A DNA stretch of 64,000 bases from Candidatus Lloydbacteria bacterium RIFCSPHIGHO2_02_FULL_50_18. GTDB taxonomy: Bacteria; Patescibacteriota; Minisyncoccia; Phycocordibacterales; UBA6899. Below the pieces are notes generated by a model that saw nothing but the letters and a program-made list of their open reading frames with translations, ran no database searches and had not been told where the DNA came from. The stretch lies in contig MHLM01000012.1 in assembly GCA_001821395.1 (NCBI GenBank), forward strand, positions 84,107-148,106, in the 5' to 3' direction. Position numbers and translations under genes: made by a program. Numbering within the stretch: the stretch's first letter is position 1; every line of letters begins with the position of its first letter. Shown here one piece after another: positions 2,145 to 43,048 of this stretch.

Positions 2145-2561
2145 ATGCCAACGATCAACCAACTCGTAAAAAGCAGCAGAAAGCAGGTCGCCCAAAAATC
2201 GAAGGCGATTGCGATGGGTCGCGGTTTCAACTCGATCCAGAATCGACCGATCTTTTACAATTCCCCGTTTAAGCGTGGTGTTTGTACGAAGGTGACGACC
2301 ATGACTCCCCGCAAGCCGAACTCCGCTATCCGAAAGATCGCACGTGTACGCCTCACGAATGGCATGGAGGTCACTGCCTACATCCCGGGAATCGGACACA
2401 AGCTCCAGGAGCACTCAGTGGTCATCGTGCGCGGCGGCCGCGTGAAGGACCTTGGTCTTCGCTATCATATCGTTCGCGGACGACTCGATGCTACCGGTGT
2501 GGACAAGCGCCAGCAGGGCCGCTCGTTGTACGGTGCAAAGCGTGCAGAGGTGAAGAAGTAG
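2145..2561 (+). CDS. rpsL: 30S ribosomal protein S12
   Basis: MPTINQLVK...PKKPNSALRK-like...GGRVKDLPGVRYH are canonical S12 motifs. Confidence 0.95.
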
Positions 2562-2645
2562 TAGTATTCAAGTCTTTACAGAAACTAATATCGCACTGGA
2601 GTACCGACGACTTGCGGGAAAGACCAGTCGAACAAATAAAACAAT

Positions 2646-3116
2646 ATGCGCGGACCAGTAAAGAATCGTAATATCCGAAAGCCGGATGCAAAGTATCATT
2701 CAGTAGAAGTTTCGACACTCATCAACTACGTGATGTGGGAAGGAAAAAAGACCATCGCAACGACGGTCGTTTATGATGCACTTGAGCTCATCAAAACTCA
2801 GCTAAAAGTAGAGGACCCTATCGAAGTCTACAAGGAAGCACTGCGCAACGCCGGACCGATCATGGAAATTCGTTCACGCCGCGTCGGTGGCGCCAATTAT
2901 CAGGTTCCCCGTGAGGTCCGACCCGAGCGCCGCATCTTCCTCGCGCTGCGCTGGATCATCGATGCCGCTCGCTCAAAGAAGGGAGCCGGAATGGCCAAGA
3001 AGCTTGCCGATGAGATCATCTCCGCTTCAAAGAACGAGGGTGAAGCTATCAAGAAACGTGAGAATGTGCACAAGATGGCGGAAGCGAACAAAGCCTTCGC
3101 GCACTTCGCCTGGTAA
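2646..3116 (+). CDS. rpsG: 30S ribosomal protein S7
   Basis: Full-length S7-like sequence (KKTIATTVVYDALELIK ... ENVHKMAEANKAFAHFAW). Confidence 0.95.
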   Translation: MRGPVKNRNIRKPDAKYHSVEVSTLINYVMWEGKKTIATTVVYDALELIKTQLKVEDPIEVYKEALRNAGPIMEIRSRRVGGANYQVPREVRPERRIFLALRWIIDAARSKKGAGMAKKLADEIISASKNEGEAIKKRENVHKMAEANKAFAHFAW

Positions 3117-3274
3117 AAATTTTGTAATTCTGGCGCCCTTCGCGCTTGACTTTGAACGCGAGTCCGACGAACGTACTATGAGGAGTACGTCCGCACGGAC
3201 ATCGCATTCTTGCCGCGCGCGAATTGCATCCAGAATAACAAAATTTTTCGTATCGGCTGCAAAATGCAGCAAAT

Positions 3275-3306
3275 AAAATTCCCTCGAAAGGGGAATTTTA
3301 ATTTTA
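3275..3306 (+). terminator. hairpin plus T-rich tract after rpsG
   Basis: aaattccc-tcgaaa-gggaattt followed by ttttaatttt. Confidence 0.4.
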
Positions 3307-3381
3307 CTAAATCGCGTTGCGGACGTAGTGTTTTATGTTATGGTGACGGAAGATCGTTCAAATTTAATGGAGGAGTGCGTT

Positions 3382-3969
3382 ATGTCCAAGAATTCTTGTG
3401 TCACCGTCATCTACCCGAAATCAATTCCAGTGAATAATGGAGCGGAGAATTGTTTTCTCCTTGGGCCCTGCACAAACGCGCCGCCATATCACGAGGATGT
3501 TATTGATATTTTTGCCCGACTCGCGAGAGAAGACAAAAAAATGATCTCCTTGCGCATCAATTGCCCGAAGCGAGAAGGGGAGATGGTCCGTGCGCTTGAT
3601 GTTGTTGCTCCTCCCGCAGAGATCCATCATACCTATGCCCGTCAGCGGGAATGGGAGTTCGAGACTCAGGAGAGTGCCGCATTTTCTGCCGGTCTCTTGT
3701 TCTGTTTCGTTAAGCAGGGGAATAATGCTGTTCCCGAGAAGGTCTACGGAGCGATCACCCAAGTGGAGTTTGGCTATTGGCTTGCGCGGGCATCGGTCGA
3801 TAGGCGCATACGCATCGCGTATTACTCTGATGGGATATACAACCACCAACTCCGCGTGCTCCTCCATGACATTGAGCGTCTTGCACCATGGCTTCTCCCG
3901 ATGCATACTTCGTTTGAGTCATTGTGTGCGCAGTCGCTCGCATGGGCCAAGCAAGGCCCCTCAAAATAG
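3382..3969 (+). CDS. hypothetical protein (196 aa)
   Basis: ATG at 3382 is preceded by GGAGGAG. A strong terminator follows. This ORF is preferred over the overlapping minus-strand ORF 3421..3906. Confidence 0.45.
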   Translation: MSKNSCVTVIYPKSIPVNNGAENCFLLGPCTNAPPYHEDVIDIFARLAREDKKMISLRINCPKREGEMVRALDVVAPPAEIHHTYARQREWEFETQESAAFSAGLLFCFVKQGNNAVPEKVYGAITQVEFGYWLARASVDRRIRIAYYSDGIYNHQLRVLLHDIERLAPWLLPMHTSFESLCAQSLAWAKQGPSK

Positions 3970-3987
3970 TCCATCAAGCAAGCAATA

Positions 3988-4012
3988 CGAACCGATCCTC
4001 GGTTCGTTTTTC
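3988..4012 (+). terminator. rho-independent terminator
   Basis: gaaccga-tcct-cggttc stem plus TTTTT. Confidence 0.6.
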
Positions 4013-4052
4013 ATTGCAATTTGTGATTCTTAGCCATATTTTCCCGCTTTTT

Positions 4053-4073
4053 TGTCAAGGTTAAACCTTGACA
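4053..4073. promoter_or_regulatory. 21-bp palindrome TGTCAAGGTT-a-AACCTTGACA (candidate operator; contains TTGACA)
   Basis: Perfect 10-1-10 inverted repeat. The same motif recurs at 24929-24951. Confidence 0.4.
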
Positions 4074-4085
4074 TTGATATATAAA

Positions 4086-4117
4086 GAAAAAACCTCCGAT
4101 GAGTCGGAGGTATTTTT
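4086..4117. terminator. bidirectional terminator hairpin
   Basis: cctccga-tgag-tcggagg stem with an A-run upstream and a T-run downstream. The minus-strand gene ends at 4116. Confidence 0.55.
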
Positions 4118-4328
4118 ACGTTTGTTTGCTTGGAACTTTTTCTACTCGGTCGCGAGAGTAGTGCCCGTCAAGCCCGGGAATGTCCGTTGAAGTGCATACG
4201 TTGCTTCCATCACAGTGCCGGACAATGTAGATATTGCCGACCGTGAGCGGTAACGTACGCGATGTTTGCCCCGTTGGCTTCGAAAGCAATTTGACTCGGT
4301 CATTCGAGCGCAGTGTTTGATCAGACAT
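4116..4328 (-). CDS. hypothetical small protein (70 aa), translationally coupled to the upstream gene
   Basis: ATG at 4328 overlaps the stop of the 4321..4671 gene by 8 nt (ATGTCTGA). GGAGGA RBS. Terminator lies immediately downstream. Confidence 0.4.
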   Translation of the reverse strand: MSDQTLRSNDRVKLLSKPTGQTSRTLPLTVGNIYIVRHCDGSNVCTSTDIPGLDGHYSRDRVEKVPSKQT

Positions 4329-4671
4329 GAGCATCCTCCATAAATAGATCCGTTTCCGGGGTGATCCCAATACTTTTGATGATCTGCCCGTTGTCACTCC
4401 GTTCGTTCAGGGTGAAACATACCGTTGCAGTACTGTATCCCACGTGACACTTGCTCAGTTTTCCGAGTAATTTGCCTTGCGCGTAGGCGCTGACTGTTTT
4501 ACCGGTGAGCGTGCAAAGTGCAGTGAGATATTGGTCGTTGCGTGCATGGCCCAAGGCTACCGCACTTAGCTCTTTTGCCAACGGATGTCCCATTTTATTG
4601 AGTACATTGACGGCATTTCGGTATTGTTCCTCACGGTACTTGTGGAGTACGTAGGGAATGGGGAATTGCAT
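4321..4671 (-). CDS. hypothetical protein (116 aa)
   Basis: Clean ORF divergent from fusA. No confident family assignment. Confidence 0.45.
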   Translation of the reverse strand: MQFPIPYVLHKYREEQYRNAVNVLNKMGHPLAKELSAVALGHARNDQYLTALCTLTGKTVSAYAQGKLLGKLSKCHVGYSTATVCFTLNERSDNGQIIKSIGITPETDLFMEDAHV

Positions 4672-4869
4672 TTGCCTCTCCTTGTTTTGATTTTGAACTC
4701 CTGTGTAAAACTATACATAAGATATTGTTCTTGTAAAGATTCTTTGCAGGTTGCTCAAAAGGGGAGTTTTCTATATAGTAACGCCATTAAGTGCCCTTTG
4801 TGGCGTTTTTGTTTACGCGGCAGTTCGCGTTACGGGGAAGATCATTTATTCGTTTTTTATTCACTTTTT

Positions 4870-7017
<2,148 letters not shown>

Positions 7018-7088
7018 ATATATTTCTCGTAGATAAATAAAAGCGATCATTATTTAATGGTCGCTTTTATTTTTGCTATACTATATCC

Positions 7089-7640
7089 ATGTACGATGAT
7101 GAAGATGATGACGACGAAGACGAGGGTGAAATAGGGCTTGATGCAGAAACAGTGCGACGCGAAGAGGCCGAGGTCGTGCAGGGGAAAGCATCCCGTGCTT
7201 TTTATGATGACCTCGCAAAAAAAGAAGATGATCGTCACAATGCGATGCGTCTTGACATGCAACAGCGCGCACTTGCCGCGGGTGAACTCCGTCAAAAATT
7301 ACGCAATAAAGAAACCGAGCTGCACGCGCTCCAACTCAAGATCACTATTGAGGAAGACCGTATCGATTATGAAAAAAAGAAAGCGTACCGTCTTGGAGGA
7401 GGTGAATCTATCGCTACGGGAGATGGAGCAACACGATCTGTCCCGATCCCCATACTCTCAAAAGATGTTGACGCTAAGGATGCTGATCAAGAATTTTCGG
7501 TAGAACACGCTGAAATACACATCAAGCAATTGCAGAGTGAAAAATTGGAGCTTGAAAAGGTGTTGAGCGGAATGAAGGAGCATTTGAATGAAGAAGAGCG
7601 TGCGTTGTCACAACTTCAGCATCAACTCGTTCGCATGTAA
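7089..7640 (+). CDS. hypothetical acidic coiled-coil protein
   Basis: N-terminal poly-D/E tract (DDEDDDDEDEGE) followed by heptad-like E/K/L-rich sequence. Confidence 0.5.
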   Translation: MYDDEDDDDEDEGEIGLDAETVRREEAEVVQGKASRAFYDDLAKKEDDRHNAMRLDMQQRALAAGELRQKLRNKETELHALQLKITIEEDRIDYEKKKAYRLGGGESIATGDGATRSVPIPILSKDVDAKDADQEFSVEHAEIHIKQLQSEKLELEKVLSGMKEHLNEEERALSQLQHQLVRM

Positions 7641-7677
7641 TGGCGTTCTTCTTTTTGTTGCATGATATAATTTGGTC

Positions 7678-8937
7678 ATGCCCGAAGATGAAGCCAACCA
7701 ATCCTCAGCCGCATCCGGGAGTCTAGGCGGTCTTCCCGATAGTGTAGCTCCTTCGGCCAGCGTGGAACCAAAAATAATTTCATCACCAGCACCAATGGTC
7801 TCCTCTGTTGTGTTACCCGTGGCGAATCCTATCGATCCTGCGGCGACAGAGAGTTCCGCAAATAATGAGAAGCATCTGCTACTCATTGCGCATCTATTGA
7901 ATCAGGTTCGCATCAAAAAGTCTGAGATAGGTGCTGCTCGCGATAAGATGGGTCAATTGGGGCGCGAGAGCGCGCAATTGCAAACCGAAATGCACCATAT
8001 TGAGCAAGACGTGCGCCGTGTTGAGGGAGAGTTGTACCAGGTCAAGCTTGATGCCAATAAGCAAGAGAGCACGTCAAAAGGAGAGCAGGTTGGCATGAAC
8101 GATAAAGATACGGAACTGAAAAGGCGGAGCGATGGCATCGCGAGGCTCGAGCGAGATATCGATAAATTGAAGCAAGCGATCGCCGAGCGAGAGCAACGAA
8201 TAGCTGAGATAAAAACTGAAAATAGTTCACTTGCGAAATCAAAGGAGGACCTCAGGCGAAAGATCGAGCTCGAACTTGCAGGCATCAGGGTCAAGGCCGA
8301 AAAAGCACGCGAGAAGGAAACCGCGATACGGCGCATAAAACAAGATCATGAACGGAAAAAGATGGAGATCTTTCACAAGAAGAGTGCGCCTGTTGACCGC
8401 TTACACTCAGCTCTAGATAACCAGCGGGAGGTTTCCCGACTGGAGTCCGACCTGCGGCATATTGAGCAGGAACTGTCGCGCACAGAGGGCGAGCTCCGTC
8501 TTATCGAAACGAGTGAGCACCAAGAAGAGAATACATCAAGGGTGGATCAGGGTGAGATGCGCAATAGGGATATGGTGATCTATAAAACAGGAGATGAGGT
8601 TGTTAAGCTCGGCAGAGAGATAGGGCGGCTGAACGTTGAGATTGCCGAGAAGGAAAGTGAGATAGCAAAGCTGGGCGGTGAAGGTCAGGAGTTGAGAAAG
8701 GGAAGAGAGGAGTTACGGCGACGGTATGAACTCGAGCATTTTAGTGCAAACTCAGGATTTACGCTTGCGCATGAGAAAGAGCTTCAGCTCTCTCGTTTTA
8801 AGCAGGGATTTCTTTTGAAGGAGGATAAGATCAAAAAGAACGAACATGCGCAAATACAACTACGCCATGACCTCATCTCCCTTGAGCAAGATCTGGCAAC
8901 GGTTGAAGCAGAATTGCGTCATGCTAACAGTGCATAG
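7678..8937 (+). CDS. hypothetical long coiled-coil protein (419 aa)
   Basis: ATG at 7678; the ORF track began at a TTG at 7672. Repetitive E/R/K/L-rich segments. Confidence 0.5.
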   Translation: MPEDEANQSSAASGSLGGLPDSVAPSASVEPKIISSPAPMVSSVVLPVANPIDPAATESSANNEKHLLLIAHLLNQVRIKKSEIGAARDKMGQLGRESAQLQTEMHHIEQDVRRVEGELYQVKLDANKQESTSKGEQVGMNDKDTELKRRSDGIARLERDIDKLKQAIAEREQRIAEIKTENSSLAKSKEDLRRKIELELAGIRVKAEKAREKETAIRRIKQDHERKKMEIFHKKSAPVDRLHSALDNQREVSRLESDLRHIEQELSRTEGELRLIETSEHQEENTSRVDQGEMRNRDMVIYKTGDEVVKLGREIGRLNVEIAEKESEIAKLGGEGQELRKGREELRRRYELEHFSANSGFTLAHEKELQLSRFKQGFLLKEDKIKKNEHAQIQLRHDLISLEQDLATVEAELRHANSA

Positions 8938-9049
8938 CTCTTGATGTGTAACACACTCTGCCGTCACGGGAGACGAACTCTTGCGGGGAAATCTAAGGAC
9001 AACGTCAGGTGATGATATGGTTGTGCTTCGATAGTTTATTGTTCAGTAA

Positions 9050-9146
9050 AAGGTATTAAACCCCAGGGCAAGCCCTGGGCTCGCGATGGGCTCGCAAAGC
9101 CTCGCGCGAGTCTAGGGCTGTGCCGCAGGGTATTAAACCTTTTTTA
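9050..9146. other. GC-rich structured element flanked by 11-bp direct repeats GGTATTAAACC
   Basis: ccagggcaagccctgg hairpin and ctcgcgcgag palindrome lie between two GGTATTAAACC copies (9051-9061 and 9131-9141). Confidence 0.3.
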
Positions 9147-9189
9147 GCTCTCCTCGGCACCACGGAGAGTACTTCATTTTTTTATGTTC

Positions 9190-9237
9190 AGAATATTATC
9201 TTAACCTATGCTATAGCATAGGTTAAGATAATATTCT
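9190..9237. repeat. 48-bp perfect palindrome
   Basis: agaatattatcttaacctatgcta|tagcataggttaagataatattct is an exact inverted repeat with no spacer. It is flanked by direct repeats CACCACG(G)AGAGTACTTC at 9159-9179 and 9267-9287. Confidence 0.9.
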
Positions 9238-9388
9238 TGATGTAGATATACATGTGTACACTTTTTTAATCGCACCACGAGAGTACTTCCATTCTTCTAA
9301 GGTGGAGTACCACCAAGAAGAATTGGTCGCTCGATGAAATCGCTCTACATCGGCAATAAAAAAACGAACCCGAGGGTTCGTTTTGTCT

Positions 9389-10129
9389 TCATTCAGTGTG
9401 CTGGCGCATTTTTCGCGCTTCGGCAACAAGTCGCTCGAGCGTGTCCGTTGCGATATGGTTTACCATCTCCGATTCAGTCATTGTGGTCGTATCGATGAGT
9501 TGGATCTGCGGATATTTCGGCGAAAGTTCTTCATGCATCGTCCGATAGCGGTCCACGAGTTTGCGGATCGACGCGGGGTTCGATGTCTCACCGAGCTTGT
9601 CCGAGAGTGCGATACGTTGTCCGCGGCGCATTGCTTCTTCAGGTTCACATACCACGACATAGGAGGCGATGATACGGTCTACCCAAAAACGCAGCAGGAA
9701 GAATTGCTGGATGAGTTCACGCTCTTCACCGGAGAGCAGTCCCTTGTCTTGCCAGTACATCATCCACGCGTACGGGTCAAAGATCGAACGATCAAAGATC
9801 ACCACATCGTAAGCATGACCATGTGTGTAGTCGATGACCATCTCGAGCGCATAGAGTGCGGTGCGGATGTTGTATTCCGGAGTCGTACGCGGAATATGTC
9901 CGATTACTTCGGCGCCTTCTTGCGGAATGTGCACGCGCAATCCTCTGCGTTTCAAGAATTTATAAAGTTCCTTGATGCAGGTCGTTTTTCCCGAATCCGG
10001 AGAACCGGTGAATTCGATAAGGAATGGGCGTGGCAAGAATGTACCTCCGTAACGCACGTCCGTTCGCAGGTATCCGTGCAGCATGTCCGCCATGAGTTCG
10101 AGGCGGGCAATGTCGATGGTTTTTGACAT
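9389..10129 (-). CDS. deoxynucleoside-kinase-like P-loop kinase
   Basis: Walker A FTGSPDSGKTT and an ERS-like IFDRSIFD motif. The plus-strand ORF 9383..10126 is its shadow. Confidence 0.6.
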   Translation of the reverse strand: MSKTIDIARLELMADMLHGYLRTDVRYGGTFLPRPFLIEFTGSPDSGKTTCIKELYKFLKRRGLRVHIPQEGAEVIGHIPRTTPEYNIRTALYALEMVIDYTHGHAYDVVIFDRSIFDPYAWMMYWQDKGLLSGEERELIQQFFLLRFWVDRIIASYVVVCEPEEAMRRGQRIALSDKLGETSNPASIRKLVDRYRTMHEELSPKYPQIQLIDTTTMTESEMVNHIATDTLERLVAEARKMRQHTE

Positions 10130-10182
10130 GAAATACTCTCTTTCTTTTGAAAAAGTACCAAGCTGTGTTTTACTATACCTGA

Positions 10183-10776
10183 ATGATGCTCAAAAATAAT
10201 ACTATACAAACAGGGCCCCGTATTGTGGGCTTTGACATGGATGGGGTGATCATCAACCATGCTCCGAATAAGATCATGCTTGCAAAGCGTTATGCCGTAA
10301 CACTGCGTCCCGAGGAGACGCACTCGGAACTCCTGCCCGGCAAATTCCCCCGCGAGGAGTATCTTGCCTTCCAGAATATGCTTTATGGTAATTCGGATTT
10401 TGCGCTTTCGGCACCGCTCATGCTCGGTGCATTCGATGTTTTGCACGAGATGAAAGATCGTGGCATCCCCTTCGTGCTGATATCCCGCCGCAGGGAACCC
10501 GAAAATGCCATCAGACTTCTTAAGGAGCGCAAATTGTGGGGCGACTTTTTTACCGAAGCAAATGCTTTTTTTGTCGGCACACCGGAAGAAAAGAATGTCG
10601 CAAGCGTACGAGAGGGCGTCACTCATTTCTTTGATGATGAGCGTAAGGTGTTGCGCGCCATACCGGACGTGAAAAGGAGATTTCTCTTTGATTCACTTCG
10701 CCAATTCAATGATGAAGATGAGTTTGAGCGTGTATTTGATTGGAAAATGCTCCGTCAGATCGTTTTTGAGGAATAG
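10183..10776 (+). CDS. HAD-superfamily hydrolase, 5'(3')-deoxyribonucleotidase-like
   Basis: N-terminal motif I VGFDMDGVII, which is DxDG(V/T). Confidence 0.6.
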   Translation: MMLKNNTIQTGPRIVGFDMDGVIINHAPNKIMLAKRYAVTLRPEETHSELLPGKFPREEYLAFQNMLYGNSDFALSAPLMLGAFDVLHEMKDRGIPFVLISRRREPENAIRLLKERKLWGDFFTEANAFFVGTPEEKNVASVREGVTHFFDDERKVLRAIPDVKRRFLFDSLRQFNDEDEFERVFDWKMLRQIVFEE

Positions 10777-10850
10777 GACAAAACGCGGAAGGTGCATAAG
10801 TCGCTTTGAAGGCTGCGGGGGTCTGATACGATGAAGATGAGGAACCTCTT

Positions 10851-11438
10851 ATGACCATTATGCACGAAGAAGGAATAGTCCTTGGGTTTGATCTCGACGG
10901 GGTCATCATCGACCACACGCAAAATAAAATGCTGATCGCTTCGCGCTACGGTATTGAATTAAGTCCAAAAGATACTCACGCCGAGCACATGGGTACGCAT
11001 TTTACTCCTGAACTCTATCGCGTGATCAAATCCCAGCTTTATGATTCAACTGCGCTCGCGCTCGAGGCTCCTTTGATGGCGGGAGCTTTCGCGACATTGG
11101 CAAAACTCCGCGAACAAGGGATCCCATATTTCCTCGTTTCGCTTCAGAAGAATCCCATGCATGCTGCGCATTTGCTCGAAGAGCGGGGTTTGTGGGGTAC
11201 GTACTTCACTCCCGAGAATACGTTATTCGCACGGAATGCTGATGAAAAGCATGCACTCGCGGCGCAGATCGGTGTCACCCACTTCATTGATGATGAACCA
11301 AATATCCTCGACGTGATGATCTCGATCCCGAACCGTATATTATTTGATGCGCGCGGACTGTTTCCCGAAAAAACTGACTATTGCCATGTAGAGAGCTGGA
11401 GTGAGCTTGCTGAAACACTGGGAATGGCGAATCGTTAG
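10851..11438 (+). CDS. HAD-superfamily hydrolase, tandem paralog of 10183..10776
   Basis: LGFDLDGVIIDH. Collinear similarity to the upstream gene across its full length. Confidence 0.6.
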   Translation: MTIMHEEGIVLGFDLDGVIIDHTQNKMLIASRYGIELSPKDTHAEHMGTHFTPELYRVIKSQLYDSTALALEAPLMAGAFATLAKLREQGIPYFLVSLQKNPMHAAHLLEERGLWGTYFTPENTLFARNADEKHALAAQIGVTHFIDDEPNILDVMISIPNRILFDARGLFPEKTDYCHVESWSELAETLGMANR

Positions 11439-11548
11439 CCTCGTACCAGTATCTCAGGTTCATTTTTGCGCTTTGTGGATTTTATGTTATGTTTTTTCAT
11501 ACGCTGTGAATACCGCGCGTAAGTTCTTTTGAATAAAGGAGTTCGAGT

Positions 11549-11860
11549 ATGACTGAGGCATTGCCTTCTTGTCGGGACATGCTGTGTGACGCGTTTGTCC
11601 GTGAATTTGATGAATTGCCGACAGATTCGATCTGGCTGGTAAGCAAGATAGGTTCCGAATTCGCGCTGTCCTCCGCGACGTCGATCGCTTTTAAGGAGTG
11701 GCTTCGACAACATCAGGGATTTTTCAGTAAATTTCCCCGCAGATATTGTGACTGGAAACGGAGCGATGTGCTGCGGTCGTCAAAGATCATCTCCGCTTAC
11801 CGATCGACTTTTTACGTATACATCCTGCCCGATGAGCTAAAGACTTTTCCGGAGTCATGA
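11549..11860 (+). CDS. hypothetical protein (103 aa)
   Basis: AAGGAG RBS 8 nt before the ATG. A terminator follows. Confidence 0.5.
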   Translation: MTEALPSCRDMLCDAFVREFDELPTDSIWLVSKIGSEFALSSATSIAFKEWLRQHQGFFSKFPRRYCDWKRSDVLRSSKIISAYRSTFYVYILPDELKTFPES

Positions 11861-11890
11861 GCATTCCCCGTACCTTTTTGTGTTTCAACA

Positions 11891-11913
11891 CCGAGCATTG
11901 CTCGGTTTTTTAT
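11891..11913 (+). terminator. rho-independent terminator
   Basis: ccgagc-att-gctcgg plus TTTTTT. This invalidates the ORF-track start at 11880. Confidence 0.55.
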
Positions 11914-11924
11914 TTTCACACACG

Positions 11925-12446: not shown

Positions 12447-12548
12447 CATATCGCGGGACGGCGCCTCACTTTTCATGCGCAGTTCTCTCTCGATATGAAC
12501 TTCGGATAATTGGGTGCCCCATCATTTAATATCCGCTTAACGTACAAA

Positions 12549-12569
12549 TGTGGAAAAAGCTGTGGATAA
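12549..12569. promoter_or_regulatory. DnaA-box-like 9-mers (TGTGGAAAA, TGTGGATAA) upstream of tuf
   Basis: Perfect reverse-complement DnaA box TGTGGATAA at 12561-12569. Confidence 0.3.
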
Positions 12570-31089: not shown

Positions 31090-31106
31090 TTGCTGAGCCG
31101 ACACTT

Positions 31107-32261: not shown

Positions 32262-32267
32262 GTTGAA

Positions 32268-32298: not shown

Positions 32299-32368
32299 TG
32301 CATTGTTGAATTGCATACTGTTGAGAGCAGTACTATACTTTATGTACATTAATATATATCCTCTCGTC

Positions 32369-35113: not shown

Positions 35114-35124
35114 CATTGAAAACC

Positions 35125-35853
35125 ATGAACAAAGATATAAAAGATATAATAATCCTTCTTACTGCACTCCTGCTCTCTGCCATCGTCATTGCTGGAATAT
35201 ATTACAGAGCAAAAAGAATACCCGAAGAAACTCCAGGAACCTTGAAAAGATATCAGCTCCAAGGAACACCTGATCATCCGGCGATGTTTTATCCTACCGA
35301 TCTGACTAAAGATATAAACCTATTGGGCTCATCTCATGATGTTTTCATAGGAAAAGTCATTTCTCAAACTGGTGACAAAGAAACTCAGATTGGACCACGC
35401 ACACAATATTCGGTGGAAGTTATTGATAATATTAAGGGTAAGTTAAAAGATATTGTAACCATTGACATGCTGGGTGGTTATGACAAAGATGGCAAGTTGG
35501 TAGTAATCGAAGAAAATGATTCAACTGATTTTCTCCTTAAACCAGGCTCAACTTACCTCTTTGCTACCCGTTATAACGAAGAAGAGGATTGGTATACTCT
35601 AATTTCTCACCCGAATGCTCGAAAAATTATAAGTACAGATAACACAAAAAATGAAGCCGCTCTCATGGCTCTCATCGACCAAGACGAAAAGGTAAAATCC
35701 TTTGAATCCGCATACGCCCATGAAGTTCTCCTCGACGCCGACATCGCCCACGGAAATACTCGTAACTCCTTCCAGTCTCTCGCACCAGCGGAAAAAGCCG
35801 CCGCCCAATCCCGCGCTGATGCGGCAAGAGCCTTGCTTGAGGCAATGCAGTAA
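35125..35853 (+). CDS. hypothetical N-terminally membrane-anchored protein
   Basis: MNKDIKDIIILLTALLLSAIVIAGIYY TM anchor. Its 5' region is duplicated at 36093-36276. Confidence 0.45.
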   Translation: MNKDIKDIIILLTALLLSAIVIAGIYYRAKRIPEETPGTLKRYQLQGTPDHPAMFYPTDLTKDINLLGSSHDVFIGKVISQTGDKETQIGPRTQYSVEVIDNIKGKLKDIVTIDMLGGYDKDGKLVVIEENDSTDFLLKPGSTYLFATRYNEEEDWYTLISHPNARKIISTDNTKNEAALMALIDQDEKVKSFESAYAHEVLLDADIAHGNTRNSFQSLAPAEKAAAQSRADAARALLEAMQ

Positions 35854-36092
35854 GATGCTTCTGCGGGGGTATACTTATTTGTGAACACAACGGCTCATGA
35901 ACAAAAAAATACTAAAATACACACTTGTCATCTTTGGGATATTCCTGCTCGGAGGCGTCGCGTTGTCGATCCATTTGTTCATCCAAAGTAAATTTGGTGT
36001 TTACGCTCCTCTAGATCGCGGATTTCCGGTAAGGACATTCCATCCAACGGGTATTAGTATTGATCAACCCAGCATTTGAATGGATACCTATC

Positions 36093-36276
36093 ATAATTGT
36101 GGGATATAACATTGAAAACTATGAACAAAGACATAAAAGATATAATGATTCTTCTTATTGCACTTCTACTCTCCATCGTCGTCATTGCTGGAATATATTA
36201 CGGAATAAAAAGTACTCAAGGAACTGTAGTTTCAACATATTCTCATCAGGGAACGCCTGAAAATCCGGCAATGTAG
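36093..36276 (+). pseudogene. truncated duplicate of the 35096-35290 junction (gene fragment encoding MNKDIKDIMILLIALLLSIVVIAGIYY...)
   Basis: About 80% nucleotide identity over about 185 bp. It includes the last 20 nt of the upstream gene (HNCGI stop) and the first 51 codons of the downstream gene, then a stop. Confidence 0.4.
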
Positions 36277-36791
36277 AATTTCATAGAAAACAATAATTAT
36301 GGAAGCTCTAAAAAATGAATTAAAGAAAACAATGGTCGTATGGAGAGATGCGTTAATCTGAGAAAAAAGATTTGCTAATCTGAAAAAGCTATTCCTCGTT
36401 ATTTTGGGTGTGGCTGTGTTTATCATTATCTTTCCGATGCCAACGAGGTGCAGGATAGAAAATCATGGAGCATATAGGCCGGCTAACGATTTAGTAATTG
36501 GTGCATACGTGGTTCGTGATTGTTACCCACCAAACCGTGCTGAATTTTGGCAGAACCCACAATTGAGTTTTGAATTTCGCTGGTTATTTGTTCCCACGTT
36601 AGACAGTATAACTGGTCATCGAGGTGTCAGTGTAATAAATATCCATCTATAAGGTAATCCCACATTCGCGTAAGCAATAAAAACTGCTACAAGGCGGGTC
36701 TTTGTTTTTTGTCTGGGCTATTCCTCGCGAGCACTAAGGTGTTCGCATATTGCTGGTCTGCGATAATCTAGTCTTATATAATAGACTCATA

Positions 36792-37214
36792 ATGAAACAA
36801 AATATACTCCTCGCGCTTACTGTTGCGGGCTTACTTTTCTCGGGTTATCTCGGCGGACTGAAGTTGTTTTCCGACACGTGTGCATTTAACGAGACATGCG
36901 CGACATTTTTAGGGTACCCGACGTGTTATTACGGCTTTGCGATGTACCTCTTGATCTTTGTCCTTCTTCTCGCGTCGCGTTTCGGGAAGATGGGCGTTTC
37001 CCGCGCTCGGTACGGAGTAGCCGGTATCTCTTTTGCGGGCATTCTTTTTTCCGGATATTACAGTTTCCGCGAGTTATCAACTCTTCTTCGTGGGGATATT
37101 TCCGATTTTTTGCTCGGATTGCCGACCTGCGCATACGGATTCATCATGTATGTGGCTATTTTGGGCTTTGCGTTGTCATCGATACGAGAAATTCAAAAGA
37201 AGAAGTTGAACTAG
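36792..37214 (+). CDS. hypothetical 4-TM membrane protein with internal duplication (PTC(Y/A)YGF motif twice)
   Basis: The two halves share FSGY...G(Y/L)PTCxYGF(A/I)MY. The ATG at 36792 follows a terminator-free AT-rich leader. Confidence 0.45.
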   Translation: MKQNILLALTVAGLLFSGYLGGLKLFSDTCAFNETCATFLGYPTCYYGFAMYLLIFVLLLASRFGKMGVSRARYGVAGISFAGILFSGYYSFRELSTLLRGDISDFLLGLPTCAYGFIMYVAILGFALSSIREIQKKKLN

Positions 37215-37423
37215 CTGCTATTTTGCAGAAAAATTGAGATATTTTATTCTGTGTCGTCACAAATTGACAGTCGTTGAGCCATTTGTTAGTATCCAAGCAC
37301 GTTTCTTTTGATCCGCCTTTCTCCTTTTTGACCCCAAATCTTGGGAGCAAGAAGAAAACAGGCGTGATATTGAAAGGGCGTATTATGTCCGACCGCGTCG
37401 AGGTTGGTATTTATCTATTTATT

Positions 37424-37606
37424 ATGGCAAAAAAATCAACAATTGCACGACAACTCACCCCGAAATTTCCGGGTCGAGCAGTCAATCGCTGTTTTAAGTG
37501 CGGGCGAAAACGCGGCTATATGAGAGCTTTCGATCTCTGCCGTATCTGTTTTCGTGAATTAGCAAACGAGGGAAAGGTCCCCGGAATAAAGAAATCATCA
37601 TGGTAA
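37424..37606 (+). CDS. rpsN: 30S ribosomal protein S14 type Z (zinc-ribbon form)
   Basis: [10 protein letters not shown]...[38 protein letters not shown] includes a CxxC...CxxC ribbon. Confidence 0.9.
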
Positions 37607-38007
37607 TCACCGACCCAATCGCAGACATGTTCATGCGCATCAGGAATGGCGGTGCCGCCAAGAAGACGGTGGTGTATATCCCATTTTCTGATCTCAAGAT
37701 GCGTATCGCAAATACGCTTATGAAGGAAGGATATTTAAGTTCAGTGTCAAAGAAGATACTCAAAGGCCGTATCACGGAGCGCATGATCGCCGTTGGTATC
37801 ATTTATAGTGAGGACAAGCTTCCCCTCGTTCGAGGAATGGAGCGTGTCTCTCGTCCGTCGTGTCGTTCATATATTGGTGCAAAGGAACTGCGTCCGGTCA
37901 ACCAGGGTCACGGCATCATGCTTCTTTCGACTCCAAAGGGTATTCTCACGGGAGAAGAAGCCCGCAAGGAGCACGTGGGAGGTGAAATTATTGGCAAAAT
38001 CTGGTAA
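37600..38007 (+). CDS. rpsH: 30S ribosomal protein S8
   Basis: [17 protein letters not shown]... Confidence 0.95.
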
Positions 38008-38018
38008 TTCCCATCACT

Positions 38019-38552
38019 ATGTCCCGTTTAGCTAAAAAACCAATAATCATTCCCGAGAAGACGACCGTCACACTTCTTGACCACGTTGTCACTGTTAAGG
38101 GTCCGCTTGGAACACTTTCACGCGCATTTCCAAAGGTCATCGACGTAGCCATCACCGAAGGTCAGATCAATGTTTCACTCAATAATCCTAGCCGAGATTT
38201 CAAGGCACTTCTTGGTACCGCCTGCTCGCATATCAAGAATATGATCGCAGGGGTCAATAAGGTCTATGAAAAGAAGCTCATCATCGAAGGTATCGGCTAT
38301 AAGGCAGACGCGAAGGGCCAGTTACTCACGATGGCGCTCGGCTTTTCACATCCCGTGAAGCTTGAGGCACCGGAGGGGGTCACCGTTGTCACTGAGAAGG
38401 GTTCCATGACGATCTCCGGTATCAGTAAGGAGGCGGTCGGACAATTCGCTGCGACTGTACGCTCTTGGAAGGTCCCTGAGCCGTATAAGGGAAAAGGCAT
38501 TCGTTACTCCGATGAGGTTATTCGCCGTAAACAGGGTAAGAAAACCGCATAA
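38019..38552 (+). CDS. rplF: 50S ribosomal protein L6
   Basis: MSRLAKKPIIIPEKTTVTL... Confidence 0.95.
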   Translation: MSRLAKKPIIIPEKTTVTLLDHVVTVKGPLGTLSRAFPKVIDVAITEGQINVSLNNPSRDFKALLGTACSHIKNMIAGVNKVYEKKLIIEGIGYKADAKGQLLTMALGFSHPVKLEAPEGVTVVTEKGSMTISGISKEAVGQFAATVRSWKVPEPYKGKGIRYSDEVIRRKQGKKTA

Positions 38553-38553
38553 T

Positions 38554-38904
38554 ATGAAAAAGACAGAACTCAAAAACTATCATCGCATGCGACGACACAA
38601 TCGCATCCGTGCAAAAGTGTCGGGTACCGCAGCGATCCCTCGTTTGGCGATATTCCGATCTGCACGACACATCACCGCACAATTGATCGACGACGAGAAG
38701 TCATTCACGATCGCCGCTTCAGGTGACGTGAAGAGCGTGAAGGGCACGAAGCTCGAGCACGCAACTGCCGTCGGTACGGACATCGCAGCAAAAGCAAAGG
38801 AGAAAAAGATCACCAAGGTCGTATTTGATCGCGGTGGATTCCTCTACGCAGGTCGCGTGAAGGCACTCGCCATCGCTGCACGGGCTGCTGGTCTCATATT
38901 TTAA
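38554..38904 (+). CDS. rplR: 50S ribosomal protein L18
   Basis: MKKTELKNYHRMRRHNRIRAKVSGTAAIPRLAIFRS... Confidence 0.93.
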   Translation: MKKTELKNYHRMRRHNRIRAKVSGTAAIPRLAIFRSARHITAQLIDDEKSFTIAASGDVKSVKGTKLEHATAVGTDIAAKAKEKKITKVVFDRGGFLYAGRVKALAIAARAAGLIF

Positions 38905-38918
38905 TCTTGACTATTACT

Positions 38919-39590
38919 ATGGAAGAAAAAACACAACAAACAGCTCCAGTAGCTCCGGCCAAGGTCGCAACACAAGGCGGCGTACCGGTGCGTGCGTATA
39001 CCCCTCGCCCTGCAGGCGGTGCTCCCCGATCTTCGGGCGGAGCACGCGTAGGAACGGGACGTGGCGGTGCAAAACCGCCTGAGCGCCGAGGTGGCGGTCG
39101 CGGTGGACGCACTGATCGTCCGAAACCAGAATATGACCAGAAGTCAATCGATGTGCGACGCGTTGCACGTGTCGTTGCAGGAGGTCGCCGCTTCTCTTTT
39201 TCGGTCGCAATGATCATCGGCGATAGGAAGGGCAAGGTCGGAGTCGGTACCGGGAAGGCCGGTGATATCTCGATGGCCATGGACAAGGCGGCAAAGGATG
39301 CCAAGAAGCACATGATCACCGTGAAGCTCACGAAGACGAACTCGATCCCGCATGAAGTGTTCGCGAAGGCGTCGAGTGCGGTCGTAGAGATCCTTCCCGC
39401 ACCATCGCGCGGACTGGTCGCAGGATCAGCGATGCGTAACTTGCTTGAACTCGCAGGTATCACGGATGTTTCGGCAAAGATTCGCAGCGGTTCAAAGAAC
39501 AAGCTTAATATGGCACGCGCTGGGATCAAGGCGCTTTCCACTCTTCGTCCTCGTGTACGAAAGGAGGCCGCAGTTACTCAAGAGAAATAA
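38919..39590 (+). CDS. rpsE: 30S ribosomal protein S5 (G/R-rich N-terminal extension)
   Basis: S5 dsRBD and C-terminal domain (VRRVARVVAGGRRFSFSVAMIIGD...GTGKAGDISMAMDKA). rplO follows directly, with no L30 gene. Confidence 0.93.
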   Translation: MEEKTQQTAPVAPAKVATQGGVPVRAYTPRPAGGAPRSSGGARVGTGRGGAKPPERRGGGRGGRTDRPKPEYDQKSIDVRRVARVVAGGRRFSFSVAMIIGDRKGKVGVGTGKAGDISMAMDKAAKDAKKHMITVKLTKTNSIPHEVFAKASSAVVEILPAPSRGLVAGSAMRNLLELAGITDVSAKIRSGSKNKLNMARAGIKALSTLRPRVRKEAAVTQEK

Positions 39591-39601
39591 GCCACAGACA
39601 T

Positions 39602-40033
39602 ATGCAACTCAATCAACTAAAACGCGTTCACAGGAACAAGGATGACAAGCGTGTCGCACGCGGTGGAAAACGCGGAAAGACTGCGGGCCGCGGAACGAAG
39701 GGTCAGAAGGCTCGCGCCGGACATCGTATGCGTCCTGAAATGCGTGACATCATCAAGAAGTTCCCGAAGAATCGCGGATACAAGAATCAGTCTTTCGAGG
39801 TGAAACCACAGCCGGTCAATCTTCTCGTCATCGAGACCTCGTTTGCCGCAGGCGAAGCAGTCAATCCGGAGACACTGCTCGCAAAGAAGCTTATCAACAG
39901 GGTGGGCGGAAGGATGCCAAAGGTCAAGATCCTCGCAATGGGCAAGCTCACAAAGAAAGTGATCGTTACCGGTTGTGCGTTCTCGAAGACCGCACAGGAG
40001 CACATTGAGGCAGCGGGAGGGACAATTCAATAA
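39602..40033 (+). CDS. rplO: 50S ribosomal protein L15
   Basis: MQLNQLKRVHRNKDDKRVARGGKRGKTAGRGTKGQKAR... Confidence 0.93.
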   Translation: MQLNQLKRVHRNKDDKRVARGGKRGKTAGRGTKGQKARAGHRMRPEMRDIIKKFPKNRGYKNQSFEVKPQPVNLLVIETSFAAGEAVNPETLLAKKLINRVGGRMPKVKILAMGKLTKKVIVTGCAFSKTAQEHIEAAGGTIQ

Positions 40034-40036
40034 TCG

Positions 40037-41332
40037 TTGGGCAAGAGCCCCACATTAACCATGAACAATTTTTTCTACAAACTACGCTTGATGATCTCTG
40101 ATCCGTCACTACGAGGGCGACTCCTCTTTGTTGTCGGAGCACTGGCCGTCTTCCGTATCGCCGCTTCGATCCCAATTCCGGGAGTCGATCACGCTGCACT
40201 GCTCCAGTTTTTCCAGAACAATCAGTTCCTGGGACTCTTGAATGTGTTTTCGGGATCGGGACTCTCAACACTCTCCATTGTCATGCTTGGTGTCGGACCG
40301 TATATCACGGGTTCCATCATCATGCAGCTCCTTACGATGATGTCGCCAAAACTGAAGGCGATGTATCACGAGGAAGGGGAGATCGGTCGCAAGAAATTCA
40401 CTCAGTATTCACGCTTACTTACGGTGCCACTCGCAATGCTTCAGGGGTATGGATTGCTTGTATTGCTGGCGCGCCAGGGGGTGCTCGGAGATCTGAATCC
40501 ATTCCAGTTGTTCGTAAACGTACTCATTGTTACGGCAGGTTCCCTTTTCCTGATGTGGATCGGTGAGCTAATCTCTGAGTTCGGTATCGGCAATGGCGTC
40601 TCGATCCTCATCTTCGCAGGTATCGTCTCGCGTATTCCTACGGTTGCCTCTCAGACCTTGGTCTCCTACAACCCTCAGGATATACCGCTCTATCTTGCCT
40701 TCACCATCGCGGCAGTGGTTATCATCGCCGGGGTCATCGTCATGACCGAAGCGGAGCGACCGGTGCCGATCACGTATGCGAAGCGCGTGCGTGGCGGAAA
40801 GATGTACGGAGGAGTCTCTACTTACTTGCCGCTTCGTGTGAACCAGGCAGGTGTGATCCCGATCATTTTTGCTCTTTCGATCTTGCTTTTTCCTCAGCTT
40901 ATCGGAGGATTTCTCTCTGGGCTCGCTAATCCGACGGCGCAGATGATCGGTGAATTCATGAAGACGAACTTTTCGCAGGGATGGATCTATTCGATCTGCT
41001 ACTTTGCGCTTGTCTTCCTCTTCACGTTCTTCTATACCGCAGTGACGTTCGATCCGGAAGCGGTTGCAACCAACCTTCAAAAGTCGGGTGCGTTCATTCC
41101 GGGAGTTCGACCGGGTGCAGCGACGGCAGAGCATATTGCGAAGATCCTCACTCGTACGACATTTGCAGGAGCATTATTCCTCGCAGGGGTCGCAGTATTG
41201 CCGCTTATCATGCAGTCGTTCACGGGAAACCAATCGCTTGCGATCGGTGGTACCGCACTCTTGATCGTTGTGTCGGTTGTGCTTGATCTTATCAAGAAAA
41301 TGGACGCACAACTCTCGATGCGCGAGTATTAA
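40037..41332 (+). CDS. secY: preprotein translocase subunit SecY
   Basis: Ten TM segments. Conserved LNVFSGSGLSTLSIVMLGVGPYITGSIIMQLL and GISILIFAGIV blocks. Confidence 0.95.
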   Translation: MGKSPTLTMNNFFYKLRLMISDPSLRGRLLFVVGALAVFRIAASIPIPGVDHAALLQFFQNNQFLGLLNVFSGSGLSTLSIVMLGVGPYITGSIIMQLLTMMSPKLKAMYHEEGEIGRKKFTQYSRLLTVPLAMLQGYGLLVLLARQGVLGDLNPFQLFVNVLIVTAGSLFLMWIGELISEFGIGNGVSILIFAGIVSRIPTVASQTLVSYNPQDIPLYLAFTIAAVVIIAGVIVMTEAERPVPITYAKRVRGGKMYGGVSTYLPLRVNQAGVIPIIFALSILLFPQLIGGFLSGLANPTAQMIGEFMKTNFSQGWIYSICYFALVFLFTFFYTAVTFDPEAVATNLQKSGAFIPGVRPGAATAEHIAKILTRTTFAGALFLAGVAVLPLIMQSFTGNQSLAIGGTALLIVVSVVLDLIKKMDAQLSMREY

Positions 41333-41579
41333 AAAACGAGCAATTTGGGCGCACTACAGGTTTGTCATCGGGTATGACCCCACGTCAACGTACGAGAGTA
41401 CGTCTCGTGAGGATCATCCCTCGACGCACCCGTATTGCATCCCAAATTGTTCGTTTTTGTTTTGTCTTAAAATCATGAACATTTGGTTGTCGCGAATATC
41501 GTTGTAGCCGGCAAGTAGATCAAAACACAAAAGACCCGAAAGGGTTTTTTGTTTTATCGTTTTTTGATACACTCTCTTT

Positions 41580-42185
41580 ATGAATAAAGAAACATTTATC
41601 TTCATTGGGGCATCGGGATCAGGAAAAGGAACGCAGGTTGCCTTGCTCAAAGAAGAACTGCTCAAAAAAGATCCGACTACTCCGATCTTCTATCTTCAGA
41701 CCGGACAGTACTTTCGTGAATTCATCAAAGATGATACTCTCGCGTCGCGTATCGCAAAAGATGCGATCAACAATGGCGAGCGTGCACCGGACTTTTTGGC
41801 GATGTATATCTGGTCAAAGGTGTTCGTCGAAAATCTCAAAGGAGAGGAGCATCTCATTATTGATGGTTCCCCGCGGTCGTTGAATGAAGCGCGAAATCTC
41901 GATATCGCGCTCAAGTTCTTTAAACGCGAACATCCCGCCGTCATTTATATCAATGTATCACGGAAGTGGTCGTTCGATCATTTGATGGCACGCGCAACGA
42001 AGGAGGGTCGCATTGACGATAACGCGGAGAGTATCAATAAGCGCATTGCATGGTTCGATGCAGATGTTCTTCCCGCCATCGAAAAATTCCGTCGCGATAG
42101 AGATTATGATTTTGTGGAGGTGAACGGTGAGCAATCGATCGAGGCTGTCCATCGCGACATCATGGCGAATGTGTTTGGGGTGTAA
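41580..42185 (+). CDS. adk: adenylate kinase
   Basis: FIGASGSGKGTQ P-loop and LID region. Confidence 0.93.
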   Translation: MNKETFIFIGASGSGKGTQVALLKEELLKKDPTTPIFYLQTGQYFREFIKDDTLASRIAKDAINNGERAPDFLAMYIWSKVFVENLKGEEHLIIDGSPRSLNEARNLDIALKFFKREHPAVIYINVSRKWSFDHLMARATKEGRIDDNAESINKRIAWFDADVLPAIEKFRRDRDYDFVEVNGEQSIEAVHRDIMANVFGV

Positions 42186-42283
42186 CGTTCACTTTTGAGC
42201 ACAAAATAGTGTTGATCAAACAGACTCGTGCTCACACCCGATCGCCGCTTTTTTATTCCGGAGAACGATGCTAGTATGCCGAT

Positions 42284-43048
42284 ATGGCCAAATTTAAGAC
42301 AAAAGAGGAGATCGTCCTTCTGCGAGAGTCCGGAAAACGCTTGGCGCGGGTACTCCATGCCGTAGCAAAGGAGATCAAGCCGGGGGTGACCACGCAATAT
42401 CTCGATGAAGTCGCCGAGCGGCTCATTCGTGAAACGGGCGATACTCCGCCATTTTTGAACTACACTCCGGTCGGTGCACGAAGACCGTACCCCGCGGCGC
42501 TTTGTGTGTCGGTGAATGACGAGATCGTGCACGGCATCCCGAGTGATCGCGTACTGAAGGAGGGCGATATCGTCTCTATCGATCTTGGACTCACACACAA
42601 AGGAATGATCACTGATGCGGCGCTTACTGTCCCGGTGGGCAAGGTCTCAAATAAGATATTGGAATTGATCTCAGAAACAGAACGCTCACTCAAGGAGGGC
42701 ATTCGCGCTATGCATCCCGGAGGACACATCGGGGATATCGGTGCAGCCGTTGAGCGTGTTGCGCATCAGCATGGGTACGGTATCGTGCGTGAGCTTGGCG
42801 GTCATGGGGTAGGGCATGCGGTGCACGAAGACCCCTATGTTCCCAATTACGGAAAAAAACATTCCGGTCCGATACTCAAGCCCGGTATGGTCTTGGCGCT
42901 TGAGCCGATGTTCATGTTGGGAAGTGAAGATATTCGGCTTATGCCGGACGGGTATACGATCATTACGGAAGACGGCTCTCTCTCTGCGCACTTTGAACAT
43001 ACGGTTGTCGTCACTGAAACAGGAGTAGAGATACTGACGAAGGAATAG
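42284..43048 (+). CDS. map: methionine aminopeptidase type I
   Basis: Pita-bread fold motifs (VCVSVNDEIVHGIP, DIVSIDLG, HGVGHAVHEDP, LEPMF). Confidence 0.93.
   Translation: MAKFKTKEEIVLLRESGKRLARVLHAVAKEIKPGVTTQYLDEVAERLIRETGDTPPFLNYTPVGARRPYPAALCVSVNDEIVHGIPSDRVLKEGDIVSIDLGLTHKGMITDAALTVPVGKVSNKILELISETERSLKEGIRAMHPGGHIGDIGAAVERVAHQHGYGIVRELGGHGVGHAVHEDPYVPNYGKKHSGPILKPGMVLALEPMFMLGSEDIRLMPDGYTIITEDGSLSAHFEHTVVVTETGVEILTKE

Follow-up and report, generated by a model that had tools for sequence, protein, structure and literature searches.

Lineage-wide breaks, variable cargo and a candidate structured RNA in the str-S10-spc ribosomal locus of a Lloydbacteria genome

The 16 syntenic ribosomal proteins (rp16) are standard markers for the placement of Candidate Phyla Radiation (CPR) bacteria and are often required to lie on one scaffold. 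Decay of operon clusters has been described in Gammaproteobacteria and Bacilli, where a junction first takes in a few genes and its neighbours are disconnected by events that come later; most of the inserted genes were not gained by distant horizontal transfer, transposable elements took part in few events, and the events fell mainly between operons (Brandis 2021, PMC8046335). The str-S10-spc cluster described here lies in a 64,000-nucleotide (nt) stretch (hereafter the window) of contig MHLM01000012.1 from Candidatus Lloydbacteria bacterium RIFCSPHIGHO2_02_FULL_50_18. It is probably a colinear string of about eight modules with breaks inherited across the lineage, in which a native, slowly changing backbone and fast cargo fill the space between modules and a long hairpin named R1 serves as punctuation.

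Breakpoints of the cluster in this genome and its relatives

All 27 genes from rpsL to map keep the canonical order on the + strand (Table 1), and the contiguity with short spacers of a str-S10-spc cluster is lost, unrelated genes lying between the modules. Four large gaps of 1.75, 5.8, 8.4 and 7.9 kb house about 30 unrelated open reading frames (ORFs) and sum to 23.9 kb of the 40.9-kb rpsL-map span. An earlier inspection of the letters alone (the sequence-only reading) had placed interruptions at six points, namely these four gaps, the rpsJ/rplC junction and the region after map, and all the genes and gaps were found at the positions it gave. Its 260-nt structured repeat between rpsJ and rplC stood in part: the repeat is real and occupies only the first ~115 nt of a spacer that is really 259 nt long. 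Its observation that no L30 gene (rpmD) is present also held, rpsE ending at 39590 and rplO starting at 39602 with an 11-nt spacer; the absence of L30 is a CPR-wide trait (bioRxiv 10.1101/2022.01.07.475337) and has no connection with the insertions. No infA, rpmJ or alpha operon follows map, the post-map genes being without IF-1 or ribosomal protein (r-protein) domains, and a search for remnants of r-protein genes at the window junctions found none.

The S7 and L5 proteins are 100% identical to those of Ca. Lloydbacteria RIFCSPHIGHO2_01_FULL_49_22, an uncultured groundwater organism of the Rifle aquifer, and several Rifle assemblies contain identical contigs. Membership in Parcubacteria and the CPR is borne out by the names of the nearest r-protein relatives (Lloydbacteria or Parcubacteria), the missing L30 and r-protein extensions. 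Low-complexity extensions typical of the lineage are seen in L23 (16024-16470, 148 amino acids (aa), Lys/Ala-rich N-terminus), L22 (26105-26560, 151 aa, C-terminal tail) and S5 (38907-39590, 227 aa, Gly/Arg-rich N-terminus).

The source is metagenomic, junction repeats can mislead assemblers, and some short contigs stop at E2, a second repeated element described below; the locus might accordingly be a chimera of assembly or binning in which r-protein blocks were stitched to unrelated DNA. But the junctions rplB/insert, insert/rpsS, rplE/insert, insert/rpsN, rpsG/insert/fusA and fusA/insert recur identically on 28-198-kb contigs of at least four independent assemblies (ENA re-assemblies, two Joint Genome Institute assemblies and Logan unitigs from different runs), and they are therefore not an artefact. 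The nearest related species shows the same colinear module order on a single 45-kb contig, and the cumulative skew of guanine and cytosine (GC) is monotonic (rising) over the whole window. Chimeric assembly, for which the sequence-only reading had advised a check, is excluded by the junctions repeated in independent assemblies, which makes stitching or misbinning exceedingly improbable.

For the comparison with relatives, about 100 related loci (numbered with the prefix L) were gathered by similarity of L2, L5 and S7 and annotated with the window proteins, and a junction was taken as open when its spacer exceeded 300 nt. The rplB/rpsS junction was open in 23 of 27 loci, with eight more in which no rpsS lay within up to 10 kb, and rplE/rpsN in 26 of 42, with 10 more open-ended. 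Open spacers were also found at secY/adk (14/25), adk/map (10/24), fusA/tuf (2/3) and rpsG/fusA (1/1), and at rpsJ/rplC in 4 of 24, each shorter than 360 nt. The 18 remaining junctions were open in 0-1 of 20-70 loci each. Since gaps above 300 nt are nearly confined to one fixed set of junctions, the breakpoints belong to the lineage and not to this genome. The proposal of the sequence-only reading that the operon is a hotspot for gene gain in its lineage is supported in this form, the hotspots being a small, fixed set of junctions across Parcubacteria whose contents change. An identical ancestral arrangement in relatives, named by that reading as its own counter-case, was found for the breakpoints and not for their contents. 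No prior description of these CPR operon breaks was found in the literature searched, which is no proof of novelty.

The closest species (GCA_043719805.1; L2 identity 96%, core genes ~87% identical at the nt level), which carries the 45-kb contig, illustrates this combination. Its rplB/rpsS gap measures 11.4 kb; BI-1, queA and a small gene are common to this gap and the window, the rest being different, and its rplE is followed by a type III/II methyltransferase and an 861-aa gene instead of the window cargo. Cu-oxidase-like and DoxX genes occupy rplE/rpsN in a species with 87% L5 identity, and in sample 3300009777, from a species with 87% L2/L5 identity, the rplB and rpsS-map blocks stand on different contigs. 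The genome with a 409-kb contig has no gap i1 and carries other genes between fusA and tuf, keeping the coiled-coil pair of gap i2 at 30-33% identity. In more distant relatives the order of modules has also changed: L020 has its rpsN-adk block (rplO-secY-adk) ahead of queA(-)-rpsS, which represents a translocation. In L029 an inverted rpsG-rpsL-M50 segment lies directly upstream of tuf, with fusA elsewhere.

The gaps might instead be the result of mobile elements or genomic islands that integrated recently, one after another, at the ribosomal locus of this genome. The SoFic-type gene of gap i4 looks recently gained and foreign (GC content 0.36-0.43, with its own perfect consensus promoter at 17534-17561), the 35-37 kb region is low in GC and holds decaying duplicates, restriction-modification (R-M) and candidate defence genes sit at the same junctions in related genomes, and a VirD4/TraG-like gene lies 3' of map. 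But most insert genes are native in composition: GC is 0.48-0.51 in the inserts versus 0.52 in the core, and the relative synonymous codon usage of inserts correlates with that of the flanking genes at r = 0.73-0.86. The Fic pieces and i5_35101 (GC 0.417) are the only compositional outliers, and apart from them a foreign composition of the inserts was rejected. Pfam scans of all insert ORFs detected no integrase, recombinase, transposase or phage gene. A scan of the window found no tRNA or transfer-messenger RNA and thus no tRNA-targeted island, and no direct repeats in the window bracket any insert. Furthermore, breakpoints and backbone genes are common to species down to 73-82% r-protein identity. 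The repeated integration into a single essential locus that the sequence-only reading had put forward is consequently unsupported as a recent, genome-specific event; the shared breakpoints largely refute it, and we regard it as unlikely.

The R1 hairpin, E2 and predicted transcription signals

R1 is a long hairpin of ~115 nt; covariance models located six copies across the window, every one on the + strand (two models, R1 and R2, were used, and scores are quoted as R1/R2). The repeat pair near 14425 and 17334 that had been noticed from the letters proved real and belongs to this six-copy family. Five of the six copies start close to the end of a stop codon, at positions from 6 nt before it to 5 nt past it, and scores of 61-129 bits on the + strand compare with 15-24 bits on the - strand. 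The rpsJ copy has a minimum free energy of -35.8 kcal/mol (z = -4.3), and three window copies share one fold. An alignment of 13 copies from five genomes gave a consensus of 34 pairs, 24 of them with both sides changed; 88% of cells were paired versus 30-47% in slid-partner controls, and none of 500 shuffles reached the observed values. The compensatory substitutions are thus above controls, in the manner of a conserved structured RNA. Unpaired motifs are conserved as well, and R1 contains an invariant U-G pair that would become a C-A mismatch on the opposite strand.

More than 40 related copies were found in the related loci, all of them intergenic. At least eight loci have an orthologous copy 3' of rplB and seven have one 3' of rpsJ, the listed ones of the latter being L009, L010, L012, L015, L016 and L064. 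The paralogues within the window are 65-73% identical and the orthologous rplB copies 90-97%. Compared with L011 and L014, the rplB copy is 91-96% identical and the rplB gene itself 77-79% at the nt level; the L014 values are 96% for the element and 79% for the adjacent rplB. R1 gave no match in Rfam 15 at the gathering threshold over the whole window, and a scan at E <= 10 around R1 and E2 returned chance-level or terminator-type matches only. In the literature searched, no published description of an R1-like hairpin in CPR was found, and this does not prove novelty. R1 is a candidate new structured RNA family.

R1 is probably not a terminator: intrinsic termination would call for a T-run, which the copies do not have, and the lack of a U-tract together with the presence of R1 inside intact junctions makes this role unlikely. 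An integron attC site was rejected on anatomy by inspection of the sequence, cassette arrays and core-site motifs being absent.

The main rival for R1 is that R1 and E2 are selfish palindromic DNA of the MITE, REP or ERIC type without RNA function, recombination between copies causing the breaks, translocations and insertions. Both elements are multi-copy, intergenic, imperfect palindromes (~115 nt for R1 and 160-210 nt for E2), R1 occurs at many different junctions among genomes, non-ribosomal sites included, and E2 is genome-specific, with inverted copies around rpsS-rplE at which short-read contigs break. The translocation in L020 would also fit this reading. However, R1 is old and positionally orthologous, as the difference between paralogues and orthologues indicates; its structure is maintained by compensatory changes, and its conservation exceeds that of an adjacent essential gene. 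It is also strand-asymmetric and co-oriented with transcription in 6/6 window copies, its invariant U-G pair favours one strand, and neither target-site duplications nor a transposase gene were seen in the window. We therefore consider a purely selfish origin doubtful, although the repeat character as such is compatible with a punctuation role.

As a further possibility, R1 may be an autoregulatory site for an r-protein or another RNA-binding protein that coordinates the separate transcription units. Here 4/6 copies adjoin translation genes, and the conservation above that of rplB and the conserved unpaired motifs suggest a protein-binding surface. RNA structures of narrow phylogenetic range regulate many r-protein operons (PMC3616713). 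But the copies lie 3' of genes and not in 5' leaders, one follows ndk and one is inside gap i4, and the pooled loci show no significant excess around core genes, which together make autoregulation improbable.

R1 most likely acts as transcribed 3'-untranslated or intercistronic mRNA punctuation, with a predicted part in processing, 3'-end protection or insulation. A broader proposal can be offered only tentatively: R1 might be a functional class of RNA punctuation, read by a nuclease or RNA-binding protein, that sets mRNA ends in Parcubacteria and enabled the splitting of the operon, the boundaries then becoming landing pads for accessory and defence genes.

E2, the repeat pair noted near 25477 and 29479 by the sequence-only reading, was verified as a second palindromic element in inverted orientation. 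Its two copies of 160-210 nt bracket the rpsS-rplE block with arms that are 82-96% identical. It was not found in the related loci and is known only from this genome, and short Logan contigs stop ~55 nt past rplE, inside E2. The pair could support inversion of an essential gene block; no inverted form of the rpsS-rplE block was seen. Pairing of the copies as 5' and 3' partners in one rpsS-rplE mRNA is unlikely, a rpsS promoter being predicted downstream of copy A.

Terminator-like sites are enriched in the two comparisons made (35 versus 19 expected and 49 versus 20 expected), and a separate terminator-type hairpin lies 20-80 nt downstream of four R1 copies. With about twice the expected number of terminator-like sites, and with promoter-like sites ahead of tuf, rpsS and rpsN, the modules are probably transcribed as separate units. 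A module would end in an R1 hairpin and/or an intrinsic terminator, and most modules would restart at a promoter-like site of their own. If the modules are separately transcribed, insertions at the junctions would spare co-transcription and hence be tolerated.

The entry route of new cargo is probably recombination for which the strongly conserved ribosomal genes on either side serve as anchors. In L016 (10846-12290) a two-gene cassette separates rplB from its R1 hairpin and encodes an HTH/mad1-like protein of 242 aa and a protein of 98 aa; a PDC-S33 candidate defence gene (E = 6.8e-125) follows shortly downstream, on the other strand. A displaced 22-codon remnant of the rplB 3' end, identical in protein and ~70% identical in DNA, stands between the cassette and the original downstream elements, and for this reason the incoming DNA is suggested to have recombined within rplB.

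Several points weigh against the modular interpretation. The relatives were sampled by L2, L5 and S7 similarity and are all Parcubacteria. Promoters and terminators were called by consensus matching, and rplC, adk and fusA showed no promoter-like site immediately ahead of them. Core-gene-anchored recombination, although probable, has a single example in L016. In the relative from sample 3300009777 the modules are probably unlinked physically, where we infer that both contigs come from one genome. R1 alone does not define the breakpoints, because it is also present in unbroken junctions of relatives (rplW/rplB, rplN/rplX, rplC/rplD, tuf/rpsJ and rpsL/rpsG). Its density in pooled loci is 4.7 near core genes versus 2.9 per 100 kb, which is not significant (p = 0.16), so specificity of R1 for ribosomal genes is unsupported there; within this genome it is weakly supported, as the 17-kb core (23% of the sequence) contains 4 of the 6 copies and the other 57 kb contain 2. 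No R1 copy lies in the 10 kb that precede the window.

Cargo of the gaps

The slowly changing backbone between modules consists of the coiled-coil pair, the HAD pair, BI-1 and queA, and the fast-turnover cargo is in part defence-like (SoFic, R-M, PDC-S33) and in part decaying to pseudogenes. The coordinates of all features are collected in Table 1.

Table 1. Features of the ribosomal locus and its gaps, in window coordinates; promoter and terminator entries are predictions from consensus matches
Feature	Position	Strand	Remarks
rpsL	2145-2561	+	Module 1; translation; Pfam S12 on identical public contigs
rpsG	2646-3116	+	Module 1; translation; Pfam S7 on identical public contigs
Gap i1, rpsG to fusA	3117-4869		1.75 kb
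R1 copy after rpsG	3122-3245	+	5 nt past stop; 40.9/76.4 bits; also 134-nt imperfect palindrome
Terminator-like hairpin	3274-3300		After rpsG R1 copy
fusA (EF-G)	4870-7017	+	Module 2; 715 aa as called in public assemblies
Gap i2, fusA to tuf	7018-12829		5.8 kb
Hairpin after fusA	7035-7072		
Coiled-coil pair	7089-7640, 7672-8937		i2
AAA_28 P-loop gene	9389-10129	-	i2; Pfam
Tandem HAD/NT5C paralogue pair	10183-10776, 10851-11438		i2; Pfam
Promoter-like sites before tuf	12600-12627, 12757-12784		Consensus match
tuf	12830-14020	+	Module 3
rpsJ	14059-14421	+	Module 3
R1 copy after rpsJ	14416-14532	+	Overlaps stop codon; 113/109 bits
rpsJ to rplC spacer	14422-14680		259 nt
rplC-rplD-rplW-rplB	14681-17327	+	Module 4
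R1 copy after rplB	17325-17442	+	Overlaps stop codon; 136/129 bits
Gap i4, rplB to rpsS	17328-25750		8.4 kb
Terminator-like hairpin	17461-17489		After rplB R1 copy
SoFic pseudogene	17570-18654		i4; Pfam, PADLOC
BI-1 pseudogene	18783-19437		i4
R1-like copy	21924-22040	+	i4; within 127-nt palindrome 21917-22043
queA	23794-24864	-	i4
79-aa gene	25074-25313	-	i4
E2 copy A	25440-25600	+	Upstream of rpsS promoter-like site
Promoter-like site before rpsS	25602-25630		Consensus match
rpsS, rplV, rpsC, rplP, rpmC, rpsQ, rplN, rplX, rplE	25751-29477	+	Module 5
Gap i5, rplE to rpsN	29478-37423		7.9 kb
E2 copy B	29478-29690	-	Inverted vs copy A; directly after rplE stop; extra 56-nt loop segment
Intrinsic terminator (predicted)	29718-29747		After E2 copy B
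M50 peptidase	31212-32261		i5
Secreted beta-helix protein	32303-35113		i5; 936 aa, zincin-like C-terminus
Low-GC 250-aa gene and decayed partial duplicates	35101-36652		i5
VKOR-like gene	36750-37214		i5
Promoter-like site before rpsN	37264-37292		Consensus match
rpsN, rpsH, rplF, rplR, rpsE, rplO, secY	37424-41332	+	Module 6
rpsN	37424-37606	+	60 aa, Zn-ribbon type
R1 copy after secY	41338-41456	+	5 nt past stop; 91/99 bits; found by nhmmer
Intrinsic terminator (predicted)	41527-41552		After secY R1 copy
adk	41580-42185	+	Module 7
map	42284-43048	+	Module 8
Post-map block, map to ndk	43049-54772	+	11.7 kb
ndk	54773-55381	+	R1 hairpin copy 1 nt downstream
R1 copy after ndk	55383-55498	+	104/99 bits

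Gap i1 holds a 213-aa hypothetical gene on the + strand and small genes on the - strand, and none of its ORFs matches Pfam. Two of them (i1_3328 and i1_4116c) have orthologues at the same position in species with 92-95% S7 identity and are absent from a species with 83% S7 identity. On the - strand at 4116-4671, two overlapping ORFs of 93 and 116 aa lie in different frames where L100 has a single 129-aa gene, and the pair may represent a further gene broken by a frameshift. A 37-nt repeat, 86% identical between 4037-4073 and 24914-24950, holds the palindrome TGTCAAGGTT(T)AAACCTTGACA, which yields a TTGACA hexamer on both strands; one site lies between convergent i1 genes and the other upstream of queA, and the repeat might serve as an operator or as a promoter element that works in both directions.

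The block of gap i2, which further includes a 103-aa ORF and a YdjM-like membrane protein gene, is common to L009, L010, L016, L099 and L100, and its coiled-coil pair is recognisable at 30-33% identity in L101/L103. The two HAD paralogues are 39% identical to one another. A 48-nt perfect palindrome (9190-9237) lies between convergent i2 genes.

In gap i4, the SoFic-type gene matches SoFic in PADLOC (2.3e-69) and has Fic_N, Fic and SoFic C-terminal domains in Pfam. It is broken into ORFs of 44, 224 and 107 aa by an in-frame TAA (17702-17704) and a frameshift near 18331-18388, and no single intact ORF of ~360 aa remains. BI-1 differs from its intact orthologues by a 7-nt tandem duplication (TCATGGC); both genes had been called pseudogenes from the letters alone, and correctly so. 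BI-1, i4_20690 and queA are conserved anchors in L009/L104, where the other i4 genes differ. The gap otherwise holds hypothetical genes. ORF 21955 probably starts at ~22126, downstream of the annotated start, because the R1-like copy overlaps the latter. A 40-nt palindrome (perfect or near-perfect) is present at 21212-21251.

Gap i5 carries two hypothetical genes besides those in Table 1. A 75-nt repeat (30145-30219 and 31108-31182, 96% identical) spans a gene 3' end and a terminator. In another repeat of ~190 nt (35095-35287 and 36091-36274, 79% identical), the 5' end of the low-GC gene at 35101-35853 reappears among decayed ORFs (35.9-36.7 kb, GC ~0.40).

The post-map block comprises four genes within 43049-54622, encoding proteins of 464 aa, 426 aa, 1065 aa (VirD4/TraG-like) and 1743 aa, the last without a Pfam match. 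A perfect TTGACA-17-TATAAT promoter (49356-49384) stands ahead of the 1743-aa gene. VirD4-like homologues lie downstream of map in several relatives too, and ndk directly 3' of map in L046, L054 and L043.

Implications and comparison with known systems

If Parcubacteria routinely hold 2-11 kb of variable DNA at rplB/rpsS and rplE/rpsN, and in some cases have the blocks unlinked, marker recovery, binning and chimera checks would be affected, and these junctions would be handy places to find strain-variable and defence genes. The locus indicates that selection for co-transcription of ribosomal genes can relax at specific, reproducible positions. R1 is moreover a well-supported candidate structured RNA in a lineage with almost no experimentally characterised regulatory RNA.

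With the canonical str-S10-spc(-alpha) cluster the locus shares gene content and the relative order of 27 genes. It differs in that contiguity is lost at 5-7 junctions, of which rplB/rpsS and rplE/rpsN lie inside the E. coli-type S10 and spc operons, in the lack of rpmD and of infA, rpmJ and the alpha operon after map, and in the joining of rpsJ to tuf with the 259-nt spacer before rplC.

ERIC-, REP- and Correia-type elements and the intercistronic hairpins of phage T7 can stabilise or process mRNA. Like ERIC/IRU, REP/BIME and Correia repeats and the RNase III hairpins of T7, R1 is a multi-copy imperfect palindrome in intergenic or 3'-untranslated positions, co-oriented with genes. Its sequence is unrelated to theirs, and its copies are ancient, orthologous and constrained; neither terminal inverted repeats accompanied by a target-site duplication nor a RAYT or transposase gene were seen in the window.

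Hotspots flanked by core genes and defence islands resemble the gaps in their variable cargo (SoFic, R-M and PDC-S33 in different genomes), rapid turnover and pseudogenisation. The gaps differ in being flanked by essential ribosomal genes of a normally intact operon, in the absence of an integrase or tRNA target, and in a large share of housekeeping-like cargo (queA, an M50 protease and HAD phosphatases).

The modularisation can be seen as a form of the known decay of operon clusters, with hotspot junctions throughout the lineage. As in Gammaproteobacteria and Bacilli (PMC8046335), junctions take in few genes and the neighbours can later be disconnected; what differs here is that junctions inside operons are reused, across a class-level lineage and with up to 8-11 kb of cargo.

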